DNA of 64,000 bases from an uncultured Coprobacillus sp. (lineage in GTDB: Bacteria; Bacillota_I; Bacilli_A; ML615J-28; CAG-698): contig CAYMGD010000002.1 in the NCBI GenBank assembly GCA_964389905.1, positions 2,843 to 66,842 of the forward strand. The letters run 5' to 3'. The notes beneath the pieces are model-generated. The model was not told where the DNA came from and made no database searches. It saw nothing but the letters and a program-made list of their open reading frames with translations. Positions 46,119-60,171 of this stretch are shown here, one piece after another. The translations under genes were made by a program, and so were the position numbers. How positions within the stretch are numbered: the stretch's first letter is position 1; every line of letters starts with the position of its first letter.

Positions 46119-47039
46119 CTACTTTATTAAACTAATAATCGCAAAAACTATAGCAACACAAACTAAAAAGATGTATAGTCCGATAAAAATTTTGGGTACT
46201 CTTTTTTCAATCTTTGTGAATGAAACATAATTTTTTGTTCCTAGTTTTTCACTCATTATCTTCCACTCGGTGTCATAAATATTTGCATACAAGTTTTTTT
46301 CCATTTGTGATATAACTTTAATCTTAGCACCATTTAAATTGCCATATGAATCTAATAATTTATTCCAATTCAAACACAATAGAATTCCAATTAAACTAAT
46401 TATTATTGCTATCCCACAACCTACTAAATAATTATTTTTTATTGAATCAATCCCAAATATAACACCAGTGCTTGTCACAGCAATCGTTAATAATGATGTA
46501 TTTAGGGTTGTATAAAAATTTGAAACAGTTTGTCTGCGATTTAATACCTCTTCACTAGTTTCCAGATACGCTTTATATTGTTCTATTAAGCCACTGTCTT
46601 TTTTAAAAGCTATAGCTTCCTCTAAAGTCTCTTTAATATCAAAGTCATATCCGTATTTTAATATTTTAGTTAAATTATCCAAAGTAATTTTTTTAAATAA
46701 TGGTCTATCATTACTGGTAAACGAATCTACAGAAAATAATGTTTTGTTAATAATATAATTACCAGTTGGATTCAATTCATATAATAATATTTGTTTATGT
46801 TTTTTTATTGCGTAATTTATTTCATAGTCTACGTTTTTACTTTTATGCGTATTTTCTCCTAAAATATATAAAACCAAATCACAAGCTTTAATTTTGTATT
46901 TTGCTTCTTTTTTCCAAGATCTAAATGTACTATCAGATTCCAATATTAGAATATCAGCATTGATTCTTTTTGTTATTTCTTTTCTTAGTTTTACAACTTC
47001 TTCAAAATTTTCACCTTTATGTATAACAAAGATTCGCAT
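46119..47039 (-). CDS. TIR-like (DUF1863/ThsB-like) domain fused to a multi-TM, SLATT-like C-terminal domain
   Basis: 306 aa with an AAGAGGA RBS. The N-terminal RIFVIH...W..EAKYKIKACDLVLYILGENTHKSKNVDYEINYAIKKHKQILLYEL fits the TIR-like pattern (W...i..sd.vivl.g..t..S.wv.wEi..A). The C-terminal half has three predicted TM helices and an NWNKLLDSYGNLNGAKIKVISQMEKNL segment. Confidence 0.65.
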   Translation of the reverse strand: MRIFVIHKGENFEEVVKLRKEITKRINADILILESDSTFRSWKKEAKYKIKACDLVLYILGENTHKSKNVDYEINYAIKKHKQILLYELNPTGNYIINKTLFSVDSFTSNDRPLFKKITLDNLTKILKYGYDFDIKETLEEAIAFKKDSGLIEQYKAYLETSEEVLNRRQTVSNFYTTLNTSLLTIAVTSTGVIFGIDSIKNNYLVGCGIAIIISLIGILLCLNWNKLLDSYGNLNGAKIKVISQMEKNLYANIYDTEWKIMSEKLGTKNYVSFTKIEKRVPKIFIGLYIFLVCVAIVFAIISLIK

Positions 47040-47888: not shown

Positions 47889-48833
47889 TTATGAATTAAT
47901 TGTCTTCCAACAATTCTTTTTCATAAATTCTGCAATTATTGATATATCTCCACCATCATAATATTTCACAAGCAGTTTTTTAAATTCAGTAACTTCTCTT
48001 TCTGGAATGACTAAAAATCCACCACCATGAGCTATTAAATAGTGATTAGCAAAAATAACGGATGCCCTCTTGTTTCCATCAAGAAATATTTGTGTCTTCA
48101 TACAATAAAGACATAACTCAATAGCTATATCAATTGCATCCTTTTCTTTAAGTTCTATTTCTTGAATTTTTTCTTTCACATCAAATTCGTTAGGAAGTGG
48201 AGGAATATATGAAGAACCACCAATTGTGACAGGCACTCCACGAATACGACCACCCTCAGCAAAGAAGCCTTCATTAACAAGTTTTGCTATATGGCACAGC
48301 ATGTAATAACCGCTTTTACTTGCTATAACATCTCTATCAAGTATGAATTCCCAAGCGTGTTTTAAGTTTAATATTTTTTGAACATCAGTAGCTGTCATGC
48401 CATTTACTTTTCCATTTTCTATGATTTCTTCTGTTTGAGGAAAAGATGTTGCAACACCTTCTAAAACTGCTTGATCATAAATATTCATCTTCATATTGGC
48501 TCTAGCAAATGCAATGTTATTTACCACATCAGCAGAAAGTTCATCCTCTGAATATCCCAATGAAGCAAGTTTTTTTTCAATTTCACGTAAACCTTTTCTA
48601 ATTTCACGAGCCTCTTTTGCATTTTTTAAAAGAAGATTATAAAGTTCATCCGTGTATAATCCAACATAGGTCGATGTTAATCTTCCTGCAACTCTTTTTC
48701 TAATATATAGATATTTTCCATCACCTTTTTGTTTAACTTCGGGTGTACCATCATAAGCCATTAGACTAAGTCTAGCATTCAAATCAGCTTTTTTTCTTAA
48801 CAATTCTTGTATATCATTAAATTTTTCAGACAT
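47889..48833 (-). CDS. Fic/Doc-family protein with Gln replacing the catalytic His (QIFLDGNKR)
   Basis: 314 aa. The motif QIFLDGNKRAS aligns to HxFx(D/E)GN(G/K)R. The codon is CAA, one substitution away from CAT or CAC. Confidence 0.7.
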   Translation of the reverse strand: MSEKFNDIQELLRKKADLNARLSLMAYDGTPEVKQKGDGKYLYIRKRVAGRLTSTYVGLYTDELYNLLLKNAKEAREIRKGLREIEKKLASLGYSEDELSADVVNNIAFARANMKMNIYDQAVLEGVATSFPQTEEIIENGKVNGMTATDVQKILNLKHAWEFILDRDVIASKSGYYMLCHIAKLVNEGFFAEGGRIRGVPVTIGGSSYIPPLPNEFDVKEKIQEIELKEKDAIDIAIELCLYCMKTQIFLDGNKRASVIFANHYLIAHGGGFLVIPEREVTEFKKLLVKYYDGGDISIIAEFMKKNCWKTINS

Positions 48834-53237: not shown

Positions 53238-55901
53238 TTATTCTTCTAAAAATCTTGCATTTAAGTTGTTAAAACTTGATGCAGCAGATACTTCGTCATG
53301 CGGTATAAATAAATATTTAAATGCTTTGTGTCCGTTAGCCAAATTGTATTCAGATGCCACTTTACAATACTTAATGGCTCTATCCTTTTTAGCTAATACC
53401 TCAGGATCATTCATCTTATTTTTTGCTTTAACCTCAACTAAATAGTACATATCTTCAGTTTCAACAACAAAATCAGGTTCATAACGATGTCCTCGATTAT
53501 ATGTAATATTAAACTGATTTGCCGCAGGTCTTAACCAACGTATAACTTCAGGTGAATTATCGCAAGCAAGGGCAAATAAGCGTTCAGGATTACTATCGAA
53601 TTTATATGGAGTAGTAACAGATTTTTGAGCACCATCATATACAATAGATTTTATATTTCTATCGTTAGGCTCTTCATTGATGTTTGTTAATCCTTCACTT
53701 ATGTCAATTAAATAGTAATTGATTACAGTTTCAATTCCTTGTACGATTTCAACTATACCTTCGTACGAAACTGCAAGATGTTGTAATAATTGCTCTTTGA
53801 ATTTACTGATTATATCTTTTCTATACATCAAGCAAATATTTCTAACTTTATCTTCTTCATATTTTGCTCTGTAATGAGTTAAAAATTGCATTACGATTTT
53901 TTGTATAAGTTCAGGGCATTTTTCATAATCAATTTCATTCACTTCACGAATACCGTCTACAAGTAGTTTTTCAGGTTTTACCGTATCAAAATCAATAACA
54001 CTGCCTTTTATTACTTGTACATTTTCTCTAGAATCAAGAAGATTTCTAATCAAAATATCATTCTCAATTGGAACATAAACCATAGATGATAAATCGAGGT
54101 CAAAGTCTTGAATTATGTATTTTTCTTCTCCTAAATTTTCTTTTTTGATTTTGGGAATATACATTGTGTTTTCTTCGACTTTTTGTATTTCTTTATCAAC
54201 AGCTCCCCACATAACTTCTAACATACGTTGAATATCGGTATTATCATTGTATCTTTCGCCTATATCTTTTTTAACAGCATCTTTAACTTGCTCTACATTA
54301 ACTTTTACTGTAGGCTGTTTTTTTATAGCGTCGTTAGTCGCATTGATAATACTTACATTAACTGCATTATAGGCATCAATATGTTCTTGATTATTAATAT
54401 CTAGTCCTGCTGCAGTAAAAATCACATCTTTTCTTTCATTATCACTTATAAAAGACATTTGTACATGAGTAACTTGTTTAGATTTTTCATATTCGGCATA
54501 AATAACGCCTTCAGCATTAAAGATAGAATCGCCTTTTTGTGCCTCTGCAATAATCTCATCGAATTTATCATGAGCAGTAATAGTAATGGAATCAATCATT
54601 TTTTCGCCTGTACGCTTACCAAAAGGAAGTCTAAGTCCACGCCCTACTGTTTGTTCACGTAAGGTTTTACTAGTTGCGGTTCTTAAAGGAACAATAGTAT
54701 AAAGGTTATTTACATCCCAACCTTCTTTTAAGATATTGACGTGAATAACAATTTCAATAGGATTATCCGCTTTTTCAACTTCAAGCAATAATTGTATATT
54801 TTCTTCCTTTTCAGAGCCACTTTGATTAGAGTGTACCAAAATGACCTTGTCTTTGTATGTGCCATTTCTAAATGCATCAGATTTTACATACTCAAGTACT
54901 TTTTCTGCGTGTTTAGTATCCTTACAAACAATAAGCATAAACGGCTTTACTAATTTTTGATTATTATTAACCGCATATTGCTTAAGTTCAACTTTCATAT
55001 TTTCGTGATGACGAATACCATCATTAATCATAGTTTTGTCTAGCTCGTCCTCAGTAAGATTATATGCTTTAATATCTTTTCTTGTAAGAGCATAAGGAGT
55101 TCTAGTATATCCGTCTTTAATTGCTTGAGATAAAGGATATTCATATACTACGTTCTTGAATAGTACAGTTTTAGAACCACTTTGCACTTGTGGAGTAGCA
55201 GTAAGTTCAAGACCTAAGACTGGTTTAAGCGTATTAATAGCCAACGCACTTGATTTTGCTCTATAATGGTGTGATTCATCCATAATCAATACTAAATCGT
55301 CAAGACTACTCAAATATTCGAAAAAGCTTTGACCTAAGTATTCGTTTATAGATTTCATTTTGTTTTCTTCCGAGTTAAACTTGGAAATATTGAAAATATA
55401 GATATTGATAGAATCACTATCACCGATAGCGTGAGCAGGACGATTTCTATAGTCATCGTCTTTCCATATATTAGGTTGTTTAGATGCAAAGCAACCAACA
55501 CCTCTAAAAACGTATTTTTCGTTATCAGGCGAAGGATTGCCTAAATCATTTTTAAGTTTTGAATAAATAGTTAAATTCGGTGCAACGACAAAAAAGTTCT
55601 TGATACCTTTATTAGTATAAAGATATGTCATAAACGCACCCATAAGTTTTGTTTTACCGACGCCTGTTGCAAGTGCAAAAGTAAGAGACATAAAATCATG
55701 TTCAAAATCCTTGAAAATAGGATAGACATCATGAATAGTTGAAGTAGCCTCAATTAAATCAAGACTTTTAGATAATTCTATTTCATCAAGAATATCATCA
55801 AGGATTCTGATACTACGTTTTTGTGGCTTTCTAAGAGCCATTATATTGCCTATTGAATCAACAGTGTATTCAGGATATAAAACTTTATTGATATTACTCA
55901 T
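53238..55901 (-). CDS. res: Type III restriction enzyme, Res subunit
   Basis: 887 aa. Helicase motifs ATGVGKT, MDESHH and LTATP. C-terminal PD-(D/E)XK-like YEPDF...LVEVKAK. Overlaps mod by 8 nt. Confidence 0.9.
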   Translation of the reverse strand: MSNINKVLYPEYTVDSIGNIMALRKPQKRSIRILDDILDEIELSKSLDLIEATSTIHDVYPIFKDFEHDFMSLTFALATGVGKTKLMGAFMTYLYTNKGIKNFFVVAPNLTIYSKLKNDLGNPSPDNEKYVFRGVGCFASKQPNIWKDDDYRNRPAHAIGDSDSINIYIFNISKFNSEENKMKSINEYLGQSFFEYLSSLDDLVLIMDESHHYRAKSSALAINTLKPVLGLELTATPQVQSGSKTVLFKNVVYEYPLSQAIKDGYTRTPYALTRKDIKAYNLTEDELDKTMINDGIRHHENMKVELKQYAVNNNQKLVKPFMLIVCKDTKHAEKVLEYVKSDAFRNGTYKDKVILVHSNQSGSEKEENIQLLLEVEKADNPIEIVIHVNILKEGWDVNNLYTIVPLRTATSKTLREQTVGRGLRLPFGKRTGEKMIDSITITAHDKFDEIIAEAQKGDSIFNAEGVIYAEYEKSKQVTHVQMSFISDNERKDVIFTAAGLDINNQEHIDAYNAVNVSIINATNDAIKKQPTVKVNVEQVKDAVKKDIGERYNDNTDIQRMLEVMWGAVDKEIQKVEENTMYIPKIKKENLGEEKYIIQDFDLDLSSMVYVPIENDILIRNLLDSRENVQVIKGSVIDFDTVKPEKLLVDGIREVNEIDYEKCPELIQKIVMQFLTHYRAKYEEDKVRNICLMYRKDIISKFKEQLLQHLAVSYEGIVEIVQGIETVINYYLIDISEGLTNINEEPNDRNIKSIVYDGAQKSVTTPYKFDSNPERLFALACDNSPEVIRWLRPAANQFNITYNRGHRYEPDFVVETEDMYYLVEVKAKNKMNDPEVLAKKDRAIKYCKVASEYNLANGHKAFKYLFIPHDEVSAASSFNNLNARFLEE

Positions 55902-57612
55902 CGTCTTCTTCCTCCTCGTATACAGGTGGAGTTACAATATTTAGGCTATAATTATCCACGCCAAATTCACAATTTGAAAGTAATGATTGTGGTATTTTCT
56001 TAATGGAAATATTCTTAATCCCTGATATCGCATTAGAATCAAATGATTTGCAAGAGATAAGCAAGAACTCATCGTCTTTAAGTTCTGTTTTGATACTATC
56101 AATAATTTCTCTACTTATATGGTTTGTAGTAACGAAAAGATAAGAATTATTTTCACTATGAGATTGTTTCCAATAGCAAGAACTATCAGGTTCGTACTTA
56201 TATCCTTCGTGTAGGGCTATAGCCGCTGCAAGCATATCCGAATTATAATCCGTACTGATTACTTTTTGTCCGAATGCATCTTCATTGATAAGAGTAGGTG
56301 CAAGTTCATAGAAACGATAACCACCGCCACCTTGCCAATTAACTTCTCTAGAGATACCTGTCAAATCTTTACCTTCAATTACGTTATCTAATCTTATTTT
56401 AGAATGAGTATAAGCATGTTCTCCCATTTCGATACCTATCCAACGTCTACTCATTTTATTTGCAACAGCAGCAGTAGTCCCTGAACCTAAGAAAGAATCT
56501 AAAATCAAATCTCCTTCATTAGTTACAACATTTAATAAAGTTTTTATCAATTTTTCAGGCTTTTGACCATTTTTAAATGTTACTCCGCCTTCACCAGTTA
56601 AACCTTGCCACCAATCATTATTAAAAATATTTGTTATTATATCTTGTTTATAAACAACTTTTTTTTCATTATCAATACGTACAAAATCTTTCAAGAATAA
56701 AATATTACCACCTTTGTATATGTAATTAGTTATATTCTTTCCCTTGTTTTTTCCTTGAGAAGCAACATAAGTGTAAGAATATACTTTATCTTTACTATAA
56801 TCGGGAAGAGATTGTACATGAGCCAATATTTTTTTATCTCTTCCACCACTTATGGCAGCAATCCTAAATATTTTAGAATAGTTTTCATAATACATTTGCT
56901 CTGTTCTATTTTCTTTTTTAATAGTAGATACAGTAAATTTATCTGCAGTTATTTCAGCAATCTCAACATCATTTTCGAAGTTTGATACAATTTCAAAATC
57001 ATTTGACCATTTTTCAATTACTTGATTGTATACATTAGTAACGGTAGGAGCTGATGGTCCTATAATAAATGTATCTGTTTTAGTAGGATTAAAACTAAAT
57101 ATTTTTTTATTTTTCGTATAGGCTAGAATATATTCGCTACAATCAAAAAATGCATTTGCTCCTGATGCAATACCACTAGGAGCTTTTACTTTACAAGTTA
57201 TCAAAGTTAAATAATTATTTCTTCCATATATCTCATCCATAATAACTTTTAAGTAAGCTTGTTCGTTATAATCAATTTGAATAAAAATAGAGCCATCATC
57301 AGATAATAAATTTTTTAATATTATTAACCTTTCTCTCATTAATGAAAGCCAAATTGAATGTTCCAAATTATCGTCATAATGTTCAAATGCAGAACCTGTA
57401 TTATAAGGTGGATCGATGTAGATGCATTTGATTTTACCTGCATAGTCTTTTTCAAGAGCTTTAAGAGCAAGAAGATTATCACCATGAATAAGCATATTTT
57501 CGGTATTACCATTTACCACATTACTTAAGCTTTTATCTTCAATAAGAATACGAGGTTCTACATTAACCTGATTTTCTTTTCCGTACCAAGTAAGTTCTAA
57601 TTTATTAGCCAT
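55894..57612 (-). CDS. mod: Type III DNA methyltransferase, Mod subunit (beta-class N6A/N4C)
   Basis: 572 aa. DPPYNT (motif IV) precedes FLGSGTT (motif I). Confidence 0.9.
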   Translation of the reverse strand: MANKLELTWYGKENQVNVEPRILIEDKSLSNVVNGNTENMLIHGDNLLALKALEKDYAGKIKCIYIDPPYNTGSAFEHYDDNLEHSIWLSLMRERLIILKNLLSDDGSIFIQIDYNEQAYLKVIMDEIYGRNNYLTLITCKVKAPSGIASGANAFFDCSEYILAYTKNKKIFSFNPTKTDTFIIGPSAPTVTNVYNQVIEKWSNDFEIVSNFENDVEIAEITADKFTVSTIKKENRTEQMYYENYSKIFRIAAISGGRDKKILAHVQSLPDYSKDKVYSYTYVASQGKNKGKNITNYIYKGGNILFLKDFVRIDNEKKVVYKQDIITNIFNNDWWQGLTGEGGVTFKNGQKPEKLIKTLLNVVTNEGDLILDSFLGSGTTAAVANKMSRRWIGIEMGEHAYTHSKIRLDNVIEGKDLTGISREVNWQGGGGYRFYELAPTLINEDAFGQKVISTDYNSDMLAAAIALHEGYKYEPDSSCYWKQSHSENNSYLFVTTNHISREIIDSIKTELKDDEFLLISCKSFDSNAISGIKNISIKKIPQSLLSNCEFGVDNYSLNIVTPPVYEEEEDDE

Positions 57613-57627
57613 ATAAACCTTCTCCCT

Positions 57628-57847
57628 GCACCGAATATCACATTCGACTCAGTAAACTCGTAAAAAAGCAATAATAATAGGCATAAGCCCAAGAAAACTT
57701 GAGTCTATGCCTTTGCTCATAAAAATATTTTGAGAAAATTCTTGCGAATACTTACAAATAAAGCGTGAATTATTGAAAAATTTGAGAAAATATGCTACAA
57801 TACCTTATAAAATATAATTTTTATGCGTCGAATGTGATAATCAACGC
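57628..57847. promoter_or_regulatory. candidate invertible promoter element (inverted repeats bracketing 178 bp)
   Basis: Perfect 13-bp inverted repeat: TATCACATTCGAC (57636-57648) and GTCGAATGTGATA (57827-57839). By hand it extends to 19 of 25 positions. It fills the gap between the tyrosine recombinase stop and the mod RBS. Confidence 0.55.
57773..57801 (+). promoter_or_regulatory. strong sigma-A-type promoter inside the bracketed segment, currently pointing away from mod-res
   Basis: TTGAAA (57773-57778), a 17-nt spacer ending in TGC (extended -10), then TACAAT (57796-57801), all on the plus strand. Confidence 0.55.
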
Positions 57848-57856
57848 AGTAATTGG

Positions 57857-58789
57857 CTAAAAAATAAATTGCAGTTTATTCATCATCGCAATCTTAGTAT
57901 CAAGCATACTATGAGCATATCTGTTAAGAGTAATGGATGCATTTTTATGTCCCATAATCTCAGATAATGTTTTAATATCCATACCACACTCAATAGCACG
58001 TGTAGCAAATGAATGCCTGATAGCATGAAAGTTTAATTTTCTAACACCTACTTTCTCAGTTAATTTTTCAAAGATATATTGGTACGAGCGTATAGACATA
58101 CGTTCGCCTTTTTTATTTTCTACTACATAATCACTTTTAGAGTCTAAGCTGTATTCTTTCATCATACCTATAATACAAGCAGGTAATGGTATAACACGCT
58201 CTGACGATTTTGTTTTTGGCTTATCTATGCAAACTTCCCATTCGCCCGTTTTACTTTTATCTCGATATGCAGTTTTATTGACGTGAATAATGCCTTTATC
58301 AAAATCTACATCACTCCATTCAAGTGCAATTAGCTCACCAATTCTCATACCCGAATAAAAACCTAATAAAATACCAAATAATCGTCTATCATCGGAATCT
58401 TGAATATAGGTTTCGATTTTCTTTTGTTCATCACGAGTAAATGCCTCAATCTTTTTACAATCATCAGGTATTCGTTTTAATCTCAAACACGGATTATCTT
58501 CACATAATTCCATATCAATTGCATATTCAAATGCCATACTAAGTACAGTAAGCATAAGATTAATACTTGCAGATGACATTGTATCACCACTACGTAAATT
58601 GCCATCTTTTTTCTTTTTAGAAAGGAACTCTTGTATCGTTTTCCTTTTTAAATCTTCAATAGCTATATCGCCAAGTTCGGGTATTAAATGTAATTCAATA
58701 ATGCTTTGATACCTACTATATGTACGAGGTTTTACTCGATCCTTTTCGTAAGTTTCAAGCCACATAAATAATAATTCTTTAATAGTCAT
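57857..58789 (-). CDS. tyrosine-type site-specific recombinase/integrase (short form, no arm-binding domain evident)
   Basis: 310 aa. Motifs GMRIGELIALEW, HAIRHSFAT and GHKNASITLNRYAH give the R-H-R-Y set. Confidence 0.88.
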   Translation of the reverse strand: MTIKELLFMWLETYEKDRVKPRTYSRYQSIIELHLIPELGDIAIEDLKRKTIQEFLSKKKKDGNLRSGDTMSSASINLMLTVLSMAFEYAIDMELCEDNPCLRLKRIPDDCKKIEAFTRDEQKKIETYIQDSDDRRLFGILLGFYSGMRIGELIALEWSDVDFDKGIIHVNKTAYRDKSKTGEWEVCIDKPKTKSSERVIPLPACIIGMMKEYSLDSKSDYVVENKKGERMSIRSYQYIFEKLTEKVGVRKLNFHAIRHSFATRAIECGMDIKTLSEIMGHKNASITLNRYAHSMLDTKIAMMNKLQFIF

Positions 58790-59019
58790 AGTAAAACATC
58801 CTTTTTTTATATAATTTTACCAAAAAACTCTTAATCTTGGGTTATCACGTACATTACCATAAAAAAGATGTTATATCCAATTAATAGTTGATAACTTTTT
58901 TAATAAAATAATATTTATTAGTACATTAATCATATCAGCATTTATCTTCTAGAGGTGTCAGGATATCTACAAATAAGAAATTATCACTACACTTTTGAAA
59001 TCGAATTTTCGGGTATAAG

Positions 59020-59047
59020 AAAAGCACCTACCATTTTGATAGATGCT
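59020..59047 (-). terminator. terminator hairpin after fic (copy 2 of the duplicated element)
   Basis: aaaagcacctaccattttgatagatgct is identical to 47816-47844 except for one T in the loop. Confidence 0.6.
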
Positions 59048-59124
59048 TACAATTATTTGACCTTATTTTTGATTAAGTTTTAAGGTATTAGTTCCCTTTG
59101 TAAGGGAAAATTAAAATTGTTTTT

Positions 59125-60171
59125 TTACTTTAATCTATAATAGCAAATAGATTTACCGCTACCTTCACGTTTTAATTCGCCAAGTTCAATTAGTTTTCTT
59201 AATGCTCCTTCAATACTGCTTATGCTAAGCGAAGGACATTGTTCACGAATATCTTGTTTATTAAATCTCCCTATTTTATTCATCGATGCACGTCTTACAA
59301 TTTCTAATGCAGAAAGTTTTGTTTCCACTAATGCAAAACGATCTTCAAAATCTTTATAAGCAGCTAAAATAGTTCCTAAAAGATATTTGATAAATGGAAC
59401 AACATCTTCTGTTTCTTCATGCCAACCTATTTGAGATTTTGCAAGTGTATTATAATACAAATCTTTATTCTTTGCTATTTTTGCCTCTAGCGATATATAT
59501 TTACCCACATAAAAACCACTACGATATAAAAGCAATGTAGTAAGTAATCTGCTCATTCTTCCATTTCCGTCATTGAAAGGATGAATACACAAAAAGTCAT
59601 GAATGAATATTGGAATAGCAATCAACGGTTCAGCCTCTAAATTTCCTATAACTCGATTGTATTCATTACAAATGTTCTCAAGAGCTACAGGCGTTTCAAA
59701 AGGATCAAGCGGAGTAAATAACGTTTCCACTCTTCCATCAGGATAAGTTGCACTAATATAGTTTTGAACACTTTTGGTTCTACCCGCAACAGGGTTATTC
59801 ATATGGCTATATAAGATTTTATGAAGTTGAAAAATATAGTTTGTTGTAATAGGAATTGCATCAAAACTTTCATGAATAATTCCAAGAACATCCCTATAGC
59901 CTGCAATCTCTTGTTCGTCTCTATTTTTAGGTGTTGTCTTTTCTGCAACTAATTGTTTGATACGTGTATTTGTAGTTACAATTCCCTCAATAGCATTAGA
60001 TGCCTCTGTACTTTGAATCTTCGCAATCTCTACAAGCTTTTCCAATTCTTCAGGGCGTTGTTTTAAGTATAATTCCTGTTTTCCAGCTTCTTTATATATT
60101 GCCGCTATTAATCCAAGAACATCACTATCCCATTTGAGCTCTTTTATTTGAGAATAGTTAAAAGTACGCAT
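59125..60171 (-). CDS. fic: Fic-family protein (class II, with N-terminal inhibitory helix) and a C-terminal wHTH
   Basis: 348 aa. Canonical HPFNDGNGRMSR and inhibitory (S/T)xxxE(G/N) motif SNAIEG. Confidence 0.88.
   Translation of the reverse strand: MRTFNYSQIKELKWDSDVLGLIAAIYKEAGKQELYLKQRPEELEKLVEIAKIQSTEASNAIEGIVTTNTRIKQLVAEKTTPKNRDEQEIAGYRDVLGIIHESFDAIPITTNYIFQLHKILYSHMNNPVAGRTKSVQNYISATYPDGRVETLFTPLDPFETPVALENICNEYNRVIGNLEAEPLIAIPIFIHDFLCIHPFNDGNGRMSRLLTTLLLYRSGFYVGKYISLEAKIAKNKDLYYNTLAKSQIGWHEETEDVVPFIKYLLGTILAAYKDFEDRFALVETKLSALEIVRRASMNKIGRFNKQDIREQCPSLSISSIEGALRKLIELGELKREGSGKSICYYRLK

Follow-up and report, generated by a model that had tools for sequence, protein, structure and literature searches.

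A putative recombinase-driven promoter switch, currently OFF, upstream of an operon for Type III restriction and modification in an uncultured Coprobacillus sp.

Organisation of the locus

The 64,000-nucleotide stretch of an uncultured Coprobacillus sp. analysed here (contig CAYMGD010000002.1, positions 2,843 to 66,842; hereafter referred to as the window) carries a restriction-modification (R-M) operon of Type III, mod-res, next to a gene for a tyrosine recombinase. All three genes lie on the minus strand, and the recombinase gene, which is separated from mod by a gap of 244 bp, is transcribed in the direction of this gap and of mod-res. A first-pass annotation of the sequence had interpreted the gap as an invertible promoter segment that switches the operon ON or OFF. 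This candidate switch, its recombination sites and its relatives in other genomes are the subject of the present study, and the features of the locus are collected in Table 1.

The recombinase, presumed to be the invertase of the switch, carries the residues R149, K192, H255, R258, H281 and Y291, which we take, from general knowledge of the tyrosine-recombinase family, to be the candidate catalytic set; all six are intact in the window and invariant in an alignment of 33 sequences. At an identity of 61% or higher, its relatives number more than 120 protein clusters, and an exact-protein look-up returned no contig on record. With the NCBIfam models of FimB and FimE (NF007371 and NF007370), which have cut-offs of 222 and 221 bits, the protein scores 36.0 and 30.6, and it likewise falls outside the Xer proteins (XerA, 113.9 bits against 220; XerC, 83.9 against 335; XerD, 76.6 against 330) and, by the NCBIfam cut-offs, the integron integrases. 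The nearest solved structure is the Int protein of Tn1549 (6en0), at 1.5e-18 only.

The operon has the organisation of a Type III R-M system, in which a Mod protein of the N6_N4 type is followed by a Res protein with a superfamily 2 helicase (ResIII) domain; the two open reading frames (ORFs) overlap by 8 nt and both are intact. Among relatives the central region of Mod varies, and matches at 80-89% identity extend over just 39% of its length. A run of Tandem Repeats Finder on mod (55894-57612) detected neither tandem nor simple-sequence repeats, which agrees with the first-pass annotation and places the gene outside the repeat-driven phasevarions. The neighbours of the module in the window are chromosomal genes, namely those for WhiA, ACPS and an iron-type ABC transporter.

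Table 1. Features of the candidate switch and its flanking genes (positions in the window)
Feature	Position	Strand	Remarks
Type III res, 887 amino acids (aa)	53238-55901	minus	PF04851 (ResIII), 1e-24, plus Helicase_C; PRK15483 (type III endonuclease) matched weakly
Type III mod, 572 aa, N6_N4 methyltransferase	55894-57612	minus	PF01555 at 2e-42; first cargo gene
Ribosome-binding site (RBS) of mod, GGGAGAAGG	57618-57626	minus	Read from the sequence; last base shared with the outer arm
Cargo-proximal core site	57626-57652		Outer arm CTGCACCGAA (57626-57635), spacer TATCACA (57636-57642), inner arm TTCGACTCAG (57643-57652)
Candidate invertible segment, OFF here	57643-57832		Two inner arms and 170 bp with the predicted terminator hairpin and promoter
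Directional intrinsic terminator (predicted)	57660-57712	minus	Hairpin 57679-57712 followed by a U-rich tract
Direct repeat, TTTGAGAAAAT / (A)ATTTGAGAAAAT	57724-57739 and 57776-57791	plus	Two copies
Sigma-70-type promoter (predicted), TTGAAA-17-TG-c-TACAAT	57773-57801	plus	Faces the 3' end of the recombinase gene
Recombinase-proximal core site	57823-57849		Inner arm ATGCGTCGAA (57823-57832), spacer TGTGATA (57833-57839), outer arm ATCAACGCAG (57840-57849)
Tyrosine recombinase, 310 aa	57857-58789	minus	PF00589 at 8e-32 and PF14659 (N-terminal SAM-like domain)
Intrinsic terminator antisense to the recombinase ORF (predicted)	58085-58116	plus	CGAGCGTAT-AGAC-ATACGTTCG followed by CCTTTTTTAT

Recombination sites and orientation of the segment in related loci

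The gap contains a perfect 13-bp inverted repeat, TATCACATTCGAC (57636-57648) and GTCGAATGTGATA (57827-57839), which encloses 178 bp as the first-pass annotation had described, and the extension that had been made by hand is borne out by a computed one to 31 nt at 77% complementarity (57626-57656 and 57819-57849). The functional unit appears, from the sequences compared, to be a 27-bp site rather than the 13-bp repeat originally proposed, each 13-bp repeat being the centre of a site composed of a 10-bp arm, a 7-bp spacer and a second 10-bp arm. Two inverted binding arms around an asymmetric crossover spacer are the classical design of a tyrosine-recombinase core site. The spacer TATCACA of one site is the exact reverse complement of the spacer TGTGATA of the other; the locus thus has two sites in inverted orientation around a short non-coding segment, and because the spacers are so arranged, inversion is the expected product of recombination between them.

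Taken alone, the 13-bp repeat has only moderately low odds of arising by chance, a perfect inverted repeat of at least 13 bp being found in 3 of 1000 dinucleotide shuffles of the 244-bp spacer. The family consensus of the site is CTGCRYCGAW-TNNNNNA-WTCGRYGCAG, and the search pattern CTGCRYYGAW-N7-WTCRRYGCAG has two matches in the window, with one mismatch each, against 0.08 expected, a count that is partly circular because the pattern was derived partly from both of these sites. The family pattern detects no further site elsewhere in the 64 kb, so there is no sign of control in trans within the window. We regard the comparative data, and not these chance estimates, as the decisive support for the sites.

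About 45 homologous loci, with recombinases 57-95% identical to that of the window and drawn from species-representative genomes, metagenomes and exact-protein look-ups, were compared in detail, and ten more were added. Wherever the recombinase is 57% or more identical and the downstream sequence is long enough for a judgement, a cassette follows directly after the recombinase stop codon, in the order site, A-rich tract, hairpin, promoter (-35 and TGn-extended -10), site, RBS and cargo ATG. Some 60 related loci have this arrangement. The 10-7-10 layout is conserved in all the family loci. At least 13 different spacers occur across the lineages (for example TATCACA, TATAACA, TGATTAC, TATGTAC, TGAACCA, TATGAGA, TGGATTA and TGCGATA), and the two spacers of a locus are exact reverse complements of each other in each locus except L014 and L020. 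The distant recombinase homologues that are 43-52% identical (L050-L068) do not carry the family sites.

Both orientations of the segment exist among the homologous loci. The OFF orientation is found in the window, L001, L004, L005, L008, L012, L014, L018, L022/23/47, L025, L098/99, L104-106, L108 and a human-gut group of 17 contigs (L026-L046), and the ON orientation, in which the hairpin comes first and the promoter points towards the cargo, in L003, L006, L007, L020, L045, L066, L102 and L118-L127. The closest pair in opposite orientation comprises the window (OFF) and L102 (ON), whose recombinase genes share 92.4% nucleotide identity; their inner segments align with a score of 69 when one is inverted and 14 when compared directly, and the corresponding scores for the window and L003 (ON) are 68 and 19. 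In these close relatives the flanks hold their orientation while the inner segment is inverted. The inner arms can be told apart by their sequences, the arm beside the hairpin being of the CTGCRTCGAA type and the arm beside the promoter of the ATGYRCCGAA type, and they trade places between the ON and OFF loci, the outer arms staying put; such a swap, with the inner arms moving with the segment, is exactly what inversion predicts.

The ends of several assembled contigs coincide with the sites. The predicted inverted junction, TATCACATTCGACGCAT, consists of 57636-57642 joined to the reverse complement of 57823-57832. Contigs L028, L100 (26.5 kb, 98x, SPAdes), L101 and L109 end on the last base common to the ON and OFF junctions, L002, L107 and L110 end within a few bases of the point at which the two diverge, and the Type III mod contigs L113-L115 and L117 open with the cargo-proximal site. 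Junction breaks were seen in the public samples ERR1995242, ERZ1106952, SRR10423935, SRR25404688, SRR25404690 and SRR35641746. Breaks at these junctions are the signature expected when an assembly graph forms a bubble from mixed orientations.

These comparisons also bear on the possibility that the inverted repeat is a chance or structural feature, such as an operator or a long-range RNA structure, and that mod-res is read through from the recombinase promoter. The frequency of the 13-bp repeat among the shuffles would permit this, and one locus, L103, shows a natural read-through layout without the segment. Such an explanation is, however, difficult to reconcile with a 27-bp architecture that is kept, and spacers that covary, over dozens of loci, with an orientation that is polymorphic and with a predicted terminator that faces the recombinase gene in the OFF orientation; moreover, an Rfam scan of 57300-58100 gave only chance-level matches (U4, E = 0.13; a long non-coding RNA, E = 0.96). 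We consider it extremely improbable.

A few loci differ in the details of their sites. L098 and L099 encode an identical recombinase protein and are otherwise identical for about 330 bp past the stop codon, and their recombinase-side outer arm (7-17 nt after the stop) differs at three positions (CTGCATTGAT versus CTGCGTCGAA), the L099 version being the reverse complement of the outer arm of the other site; the difference looks like a gene-conversion patch between the two sites. In L020 (990-1306) the inverted repeat extends to 34 nt, and past the second site comes the 3' end of another recombinase gene in reverse complement (...GHKNASITLNRYAHSMMDTKIKMMQKLPKIF), representing either two convergent recombinase genes around one switch or a fold-back assembly artefact of this 1.3-kb contig. 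L051-L054, with recombinases 46-47% identical, have in place of the family sites another perfect 10-bp inverted repeat, TTATCAGTAA / TTACTGATAA, whose copies are 171 bp apart, 14-204 nt after the recombinase stop, around a terminator-like hairpin; these may be related switches with other sites. L024 was considered as an ON junction in the lineage of the OFF loci L022, L023 and L047 and was rejected, the recombinase genes being just 70-72% identical and only the recombinase 3' end and the site being held in common.

Predicted promoter and terminators, and proposed operation of the switch

The predicted promoter of the segment (Table 1) matches the sigma-70 consensus at 10 of 12 positions plus the TG extension and is the best match in 57300-59300; as had been recognised in the first-pass annotation, it faces away from mod. 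After inversion about the repeat centre, its -10 element would map to 57674-57679 on the minus strand, the position originally calculated, with a leader of about 55 nt into mod. An equivalent promoter with a TGn-extended -10 is found at the same place of the cassette in the 19 representative loci compared. By sequence prediction, the segment carries a promoter able to drive the neighbouring operon in one of its two orientations only, and the position of this promoter is conserved in the relatives. Minus-strand promoter matches at 57840-57811 were set aside, as they reach 9 of 12 positions, which is the background level, and also lie upstream of the terminator. The two-copy motif pointed out earlier corresponds to the direct repeat TTTGAGAAAAT, the second copy of which falls within the promoter spacer; the repeat is kept in the close relatives L014, L018 and L102 and partly in L003.

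On the mod side, the distance from the end of the 13-bp repeat to the mod ATG (57612, minus strand) is 23 nt, and that from the outer arm to the ATG is only 13 nt; since the RBS abuts the outer arm, there is no space for a fixed mod-res promoter, and the earlier argument to that effect holds. In the OFF orientation, the hairpin between the mod-side site and the promoter faces transcription leaving the recombinase gene. It was listed in the first-pass annotation and is real, the minus-strand RNA folding at -21.6 kcal/mol (z = -4.3), and we extend its interpretation to that of a directional terminator, which in OFF would block read-through from the recombinase gene into mod. A hairpin is present at that position of the cassette in most of the loci compared, and those of L026 (z = -7.8) and L022 (z = -5.9) are unrelated in sequence and have clean U-runs; the terminator and the promoter are conserved by position rather than by sequence.

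The second predicted intrinsic terminator, which is antisense to the recombinase ORF and was no part of the first-pass annotation, lies at the same codons in the window, L026, L005 and L006. It overlaps the invariant motif ENKKGERMSIRSYQ, and its T-run is the antisense of AAT/AAC-AAA-AAA. Pairing in the 9-bp stem, evaluated over 26 distinct sequences, amounts to 96.6% for the antisense RNA and to 87.2% for the sense RNA; three stem pairs change on both sides, and none of 500 shuffles reaches the observed pairing. Among the variable pairs are 24 G-U wobbles that only the antisense strand can form, compared with a single one for the sense direction. This antisense-only covariation suggests selection at synonymous positions for the structure of an antisense RNA.

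On the basis of these features, the following operation of the switch is proposed. The recombinase would bind the two inverted 27-bp core sites (57626-57652 and 57823-57849), and crossover within their identical 7-bp spacers would flip the segment of about 190 bp. In the OFF state, the terminator would halt recombinase read-through ahead of mod, mod-res would have no promoter of its own, and the promoter of the segment would fire antisense into the last 83 or so codons of the recombinase gene. The likely product in OFF cells is an antisense RNA of about 300 nt, running from about 57808 to about 58115 and predicted to end at the terminator at 58085-58116, which probably lowers recombinase expression and so stabilises the OFF state, by analogy with the orientational control of fimE. 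The predominance of OFF among the assembled loci would fit such a lowering. In the ON state, the promoter would face mod, and the leader would run through the core site and the RBS; since the inverted hairpin has its A-run upstream and no U-run downstream, recombinase read-through would add to mod-res expression. A clonal population would as a result be mixed for Type III restriction and for genome-wide methylation by Mod.

Site anatomy, conservation, spacer covariation, the occurrence of both orientations among relatives and the assembly breaks at junctions are direct observations; catalysis by the recombinase, the activity of the promoter and terminators, the role of the antisense RNA and switching in the window strain itself are what we infer from them. 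With the sites complete, their inner arms exchanged between orientations and contigs breaking where the two would diverge, the proposal in the first-pass annotation of an ON/OFF promoter inverton captured in the OFF state is supported, and the window very probably holds a functional recombinase-driven promoter switch, currently OFF, for the Type III R-M operon.

Several points weigh against this interpretation. Both orientations have been seen between loci and not within one strain, and orientation is uniform in the two best-sampled lineages, being OFF in 17 of 17 contigs of the human-gut group and ON in all ten of the loci that share the recombinase protein P0104, which could mean that switching is slow or strongly biased, or that some lineages have lost it. 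The recombinase is below the cut-off of every named invertase family. The promoter and both terminators are sequence predictions, and the U-run after the window hairpin is interrupted (AUUAUUAUUGCUUUUUU) and therefore weaker than those of the relatives. Only three variable pairs underlie the antisense covariation, and they lie in related sequences, within a protein motif that is itself strongly conserved. Contig breaks on the cargo side could also stem from mixtures of strains that differ in cargo.

The same uniformity of orientation in well-sampled lineages would be expected of a fossil switch, one that inverted occasionally in the past and is now effectively locked OFF in the window, with mod-res silent or otherwise expressed. 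Decayed or locked versions do exist among the relatives: L116 has a lone site with the promoter fixed in the ON orientation, L014 has mismatched spacers, and the cargo-side site is truncated in L118-L120, L123, L124, L126 and L127. In the window, however, both sites are complete and have the same spacer, and the recombinase gene, with its proposed catalytic residues, has an intact ORF, as do mod and res; the contigs that end on the base of ON/OFF divergence in several samples indicate mixed populations in related strains. A fossil is accordingly rated as unlikely beside a switch that still functions.

The decayed copies have some features of their own. In L116 (1480-1600) the promoter stands in the ON orientation (TTTTGAGAAAATATGCTATAAT) before a Type III mod gene (80% identical in the conserved part), together with a single cargo-proximal site, ATGTACCGAA-GTTGATA-TTCGGTGCAG. 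With neither a second site nor a recombinase gene within 1.6 kb, the locus looks like a locked-ON relic. Truncated or decayed copies of the recombinase are found in L010, L011 and L015.

Cargo, possible mobility of the module and relation to known systems

The genes behind the switch vary widely among the related loci. Type III mod-res is the cargo in the window, L012 and L103. A split MmeI/Eco57I-type methylase with a T5orf172-ResIII protein is found in L005, L014, L022/23/47, the human-gut group, L027 and L044, and an unknown protein with a single-chain ResIII-Eco57I enzyme of 1262-1340 aa in L006, L098/99 and probably L104. Other cargo comprises an EcoRI-like methylase, GmrSD-HNH and AbiTii (L018, L108), a TIR protein of 1128 aa (L045), a Band_7/zinc-ribbon protein (L121/122/125), Dcm-Vsr behind a truncated site (L118-L120) and a lipoprotein (L039). 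Where examined, the first cargo ATG lies about 11-17 nt past the outer arm. Beyond what the first-pass annotation proposed, the switch thus appears to be a portable module placed before many types of cargo and not specific to Type III systems. In L033 (3400-4900), which belongs to the human-gut group, an integrase-like ORF comes after a first cargo methylase gene truncated at 119 aa, which suggests insertion of a mobile element into the cargo.

Several loci provide indications of how cargo may have been exchanged. L118-L127 share an identical recombinase protein (P0104) and the same ON cassette, L123 differing by one base. About 170-190 nt after the recombinase stop, three of them (L121/L122/L125) run through the intact site ATGCGCAGAA-TAAGCCA-TTCGGCGCAA into the Band_7/zinc-ribbon gene, and the other seven depart after ATGCGCAGAATA, within the spacer, and continue as a DUF4368 fragment with Dcm and Vsr behind it; the point of divergence falls within the 7-bp spacer of the cargo-proximal site, which is the crossover region. 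In L014 (189-415), the left site and the inner segment are near-identical to those of the lineage of the window and L001 (spacer TATCACA), the right site has the non-complementary spacer GTGGATA, and the cargo differs; a site with the GTGGATA spacer also heads the Type III contigs L113-L115. This suggests that L014 is a hybrid produced by cargo exchange, in which invertibility has probably now been lost. In L103 (3934-3990), which has a recombinase 92% identical and a Type III mod-res operon of the kind found in the window, the segment is precisely absent, leaving an outer arm, the spacer TATCGCA, an outer arm, the RBS and the mod ATG. L103 is either a scar of excision by the recombinase or an ancestral empty site, and its mod would be co-transcribed with the recombinase gene.

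The P0104 breakpoints in the spacer, the L014 hybrid and the L103 excision scar lead us to put forward, tentatively, a broader reading in which a self-contained portable module has repeatedly been coupled to defence cargo in gut Firmicutes, new cargo being captured by crossover at the cargo-proximal site and the antisense RNA having evolved as a feedback that sets the bias of the switch. That the recombination site itself is the point of cargo exchange is speculative.

Recombinases 81-95% identical occur in metagenome-assembled genomes (MAGs) labelled Bacteroidales, Ruminococcus, Erysipelotrichaceae, Coprobacillus, Staphylococcaceae, Anaeroplasmataceae and Christensenellaceae (L001-L015), reflecting either horizontal movement of the module or mis-binned or mislabelled contigs. 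Such very different taxonomic labels, the differing genomic neighbourhoods of the module, the Pfam name of the recombinase domain ('Phage integrase'), the closeness of the Tn1549 Int structure and the presence of D5_N primase, serine recombinase and PriCT genes adjoining the module in L102 and L108 could all be taken to mean that a mobile island or prophage encodes the recombinase as its integrase and that the repeats are remnants of its attachment sites. Attachment sites, however, are direct repeats kilobases apart, whereas those described here are inverted and 160-190 bp apart, enclose only a promoter and a terminator, and flank a segment that occurs in both orientations; the neighbours in the window, moreover, are chromosomal. 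This explanation is considered very unlikely. Mobility of the module as a whole is compatible with the function of a switch and does not replace it.

A switch of another kind may exist on similar cargo. L111 (734-1600; also L112) carries a Type III mod-res 74% identical to that of the window behind a divergent serine recombinase (Resolvase, 196 aa), with an imperfect 26-nt inverted repeat (1421-1446 / 1556-1581, 77%) around a TTGAAT-17-TGgTAAAAT promoter that faces away from mod, and may represent an independent promoter switch operated by a serine invertase.

Functionally, the locus is a promoter inverton of the fimS type with an adjacent, dedicated tyrosine recombinase. As in the fim system of E. 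coli (fimE/fimB-fimS-fimA), the recombinase gene lies directly upstream of, and is transcribed towards, a short invertible promoter segment, OFF is favoured, and recombinase expression is probably dependent on orientation. Control of fimE by the orientation of its switch is established. The two systems differ in that the window recombinase is outside the FimB/FimE family and in that fim has 9-bp repeats with IHF and Lrp sites, whereas the window has 27-bp cores of the 10-7-10 type, a layout that resembles the dif-like (Xer) sites in general form only. The feedback proposed for the window, in which a promoter would drive an antisense RNA that stops at an intrinsic terminator within the recombinase ORF, also sets it apart from fim, as does the cargo, which consists of fimbriae in fim and of R-M or other defence genes in the present family. 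Type III mod phasevarions, as known from Haemophilus, Neisseria and Helicobacter, switch by slippage of simple-sequence repeats. The window shares with them the predicted stochastic ON/OFF expression of Mod, and hence of the methylome and restriction; unlike them, its mod has no repeats and would be switched transcriptionally, together with res, by DNA inversion.

Invertible promoters flipped by an adjacent tyrosine recombinase have been reported from gut bacteria (PhaseFinder, DeepInverton and PhaVa; Tsr-type in Bacteroides fragilis) [PMC11868660, PMC11602134, PMC11761130]. The window resembles these in having an intergenic, repeat-flanked promoter beside a tyrosine recombinase in host-associated bacteria; in the literature reached, their cargo is mainly capsule, fimbriae and other surface structures. 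Phase variation of R-M systems by inversion has been described for hsdS or as intragenic events [PMC7672463, PMC9881135, PMC11892184, PMC11741434], and one preprint in the wider group of cited works [PMC7672463, PMC9881135, PMC11892184, PMC11741434, PMC11868660, PMC11602134] gives a score to invertons lying no more than 2 kb from R-M genes of types I-III. The hsdS shufflons (pneumococcal ivr/SpnD39III with CreX/PsrA, B. fragilis and the hsd loci of Mycoplasma pulmonis) also have a tyrosine recombinase beside an R-M locus, and there too inversion diversifies the R-M phenotype within a clone. They recombine the coding sequence of target-recognition domains and change specificity, whereas the window would flip a non-coding cassette with an ON/OFF effect only; its segment holds neither an ORF nor hsd genes, which places it outside the shufflons.

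The RecV switches of Clostridioides difficile (cwpV, flgB, cmrRST and pdcB) are promoter or leader inversions made by a tyrosine recombinase in a Firmicute, of which the cwpV switch gates a phage-resistance factor and includes orientation-dependent termination in its mechanism [PMC7446863, PMC6837544]. RecV acts in trans on many unlinked switches and at sites unrelated in sequence, whereas the recombinase of the window family always adjoins one switch and the 64 kb hold no further sites of this kind. The literature searched yielded no description of this family of recombinases and sites, of Type III and other defence operons being gated by it or of the antisense terminator, although inverton catalogues, that of PhaseFinder included, may list the locus. 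As far as established, the principle of promoter inversion is known, and the family, the range of its cargo and the antisense feedback proposed here have not been described before.

The locus is of interest because a whole Type III mod-res operon would be gated by inversion, whereas textbook phasevarions use repeat slippage, and because the same conserved module appears to gate many other defence systems in gut Clostridia-like bacteria. If this is true, single strains would be mixtures of restricting and non-restricting, methylated and unmethylated cells, with effects on phage susceptibility, the uptake of foreign DNA and possibly gene regulation. Methylomes and defence repertoires taken from consensus MAGs would then mislead, because genes can be present but OFF, and the fragmentation of metagenome assemblies at such loci would be explained. 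The 27-bp sites, the compact recombinase and the built-in promoter and terminator could serve in engineered switches for Firmicutes. The proposed antisense feedback, which relies on a terminator placed inside the coding sequence of the recombinase, offers a way of biasing a genetic switch that can be tested directly.

Elsewhere in the window, genes near the switch (46119-47039, 47889-48833 and 59125-60171) encode a TIR/ThsB-like protein that carries a fused 8xMP membrane domain, as well as two proteins with Fic domains; situated amid housekeeping genes, they resemble a small defence island.

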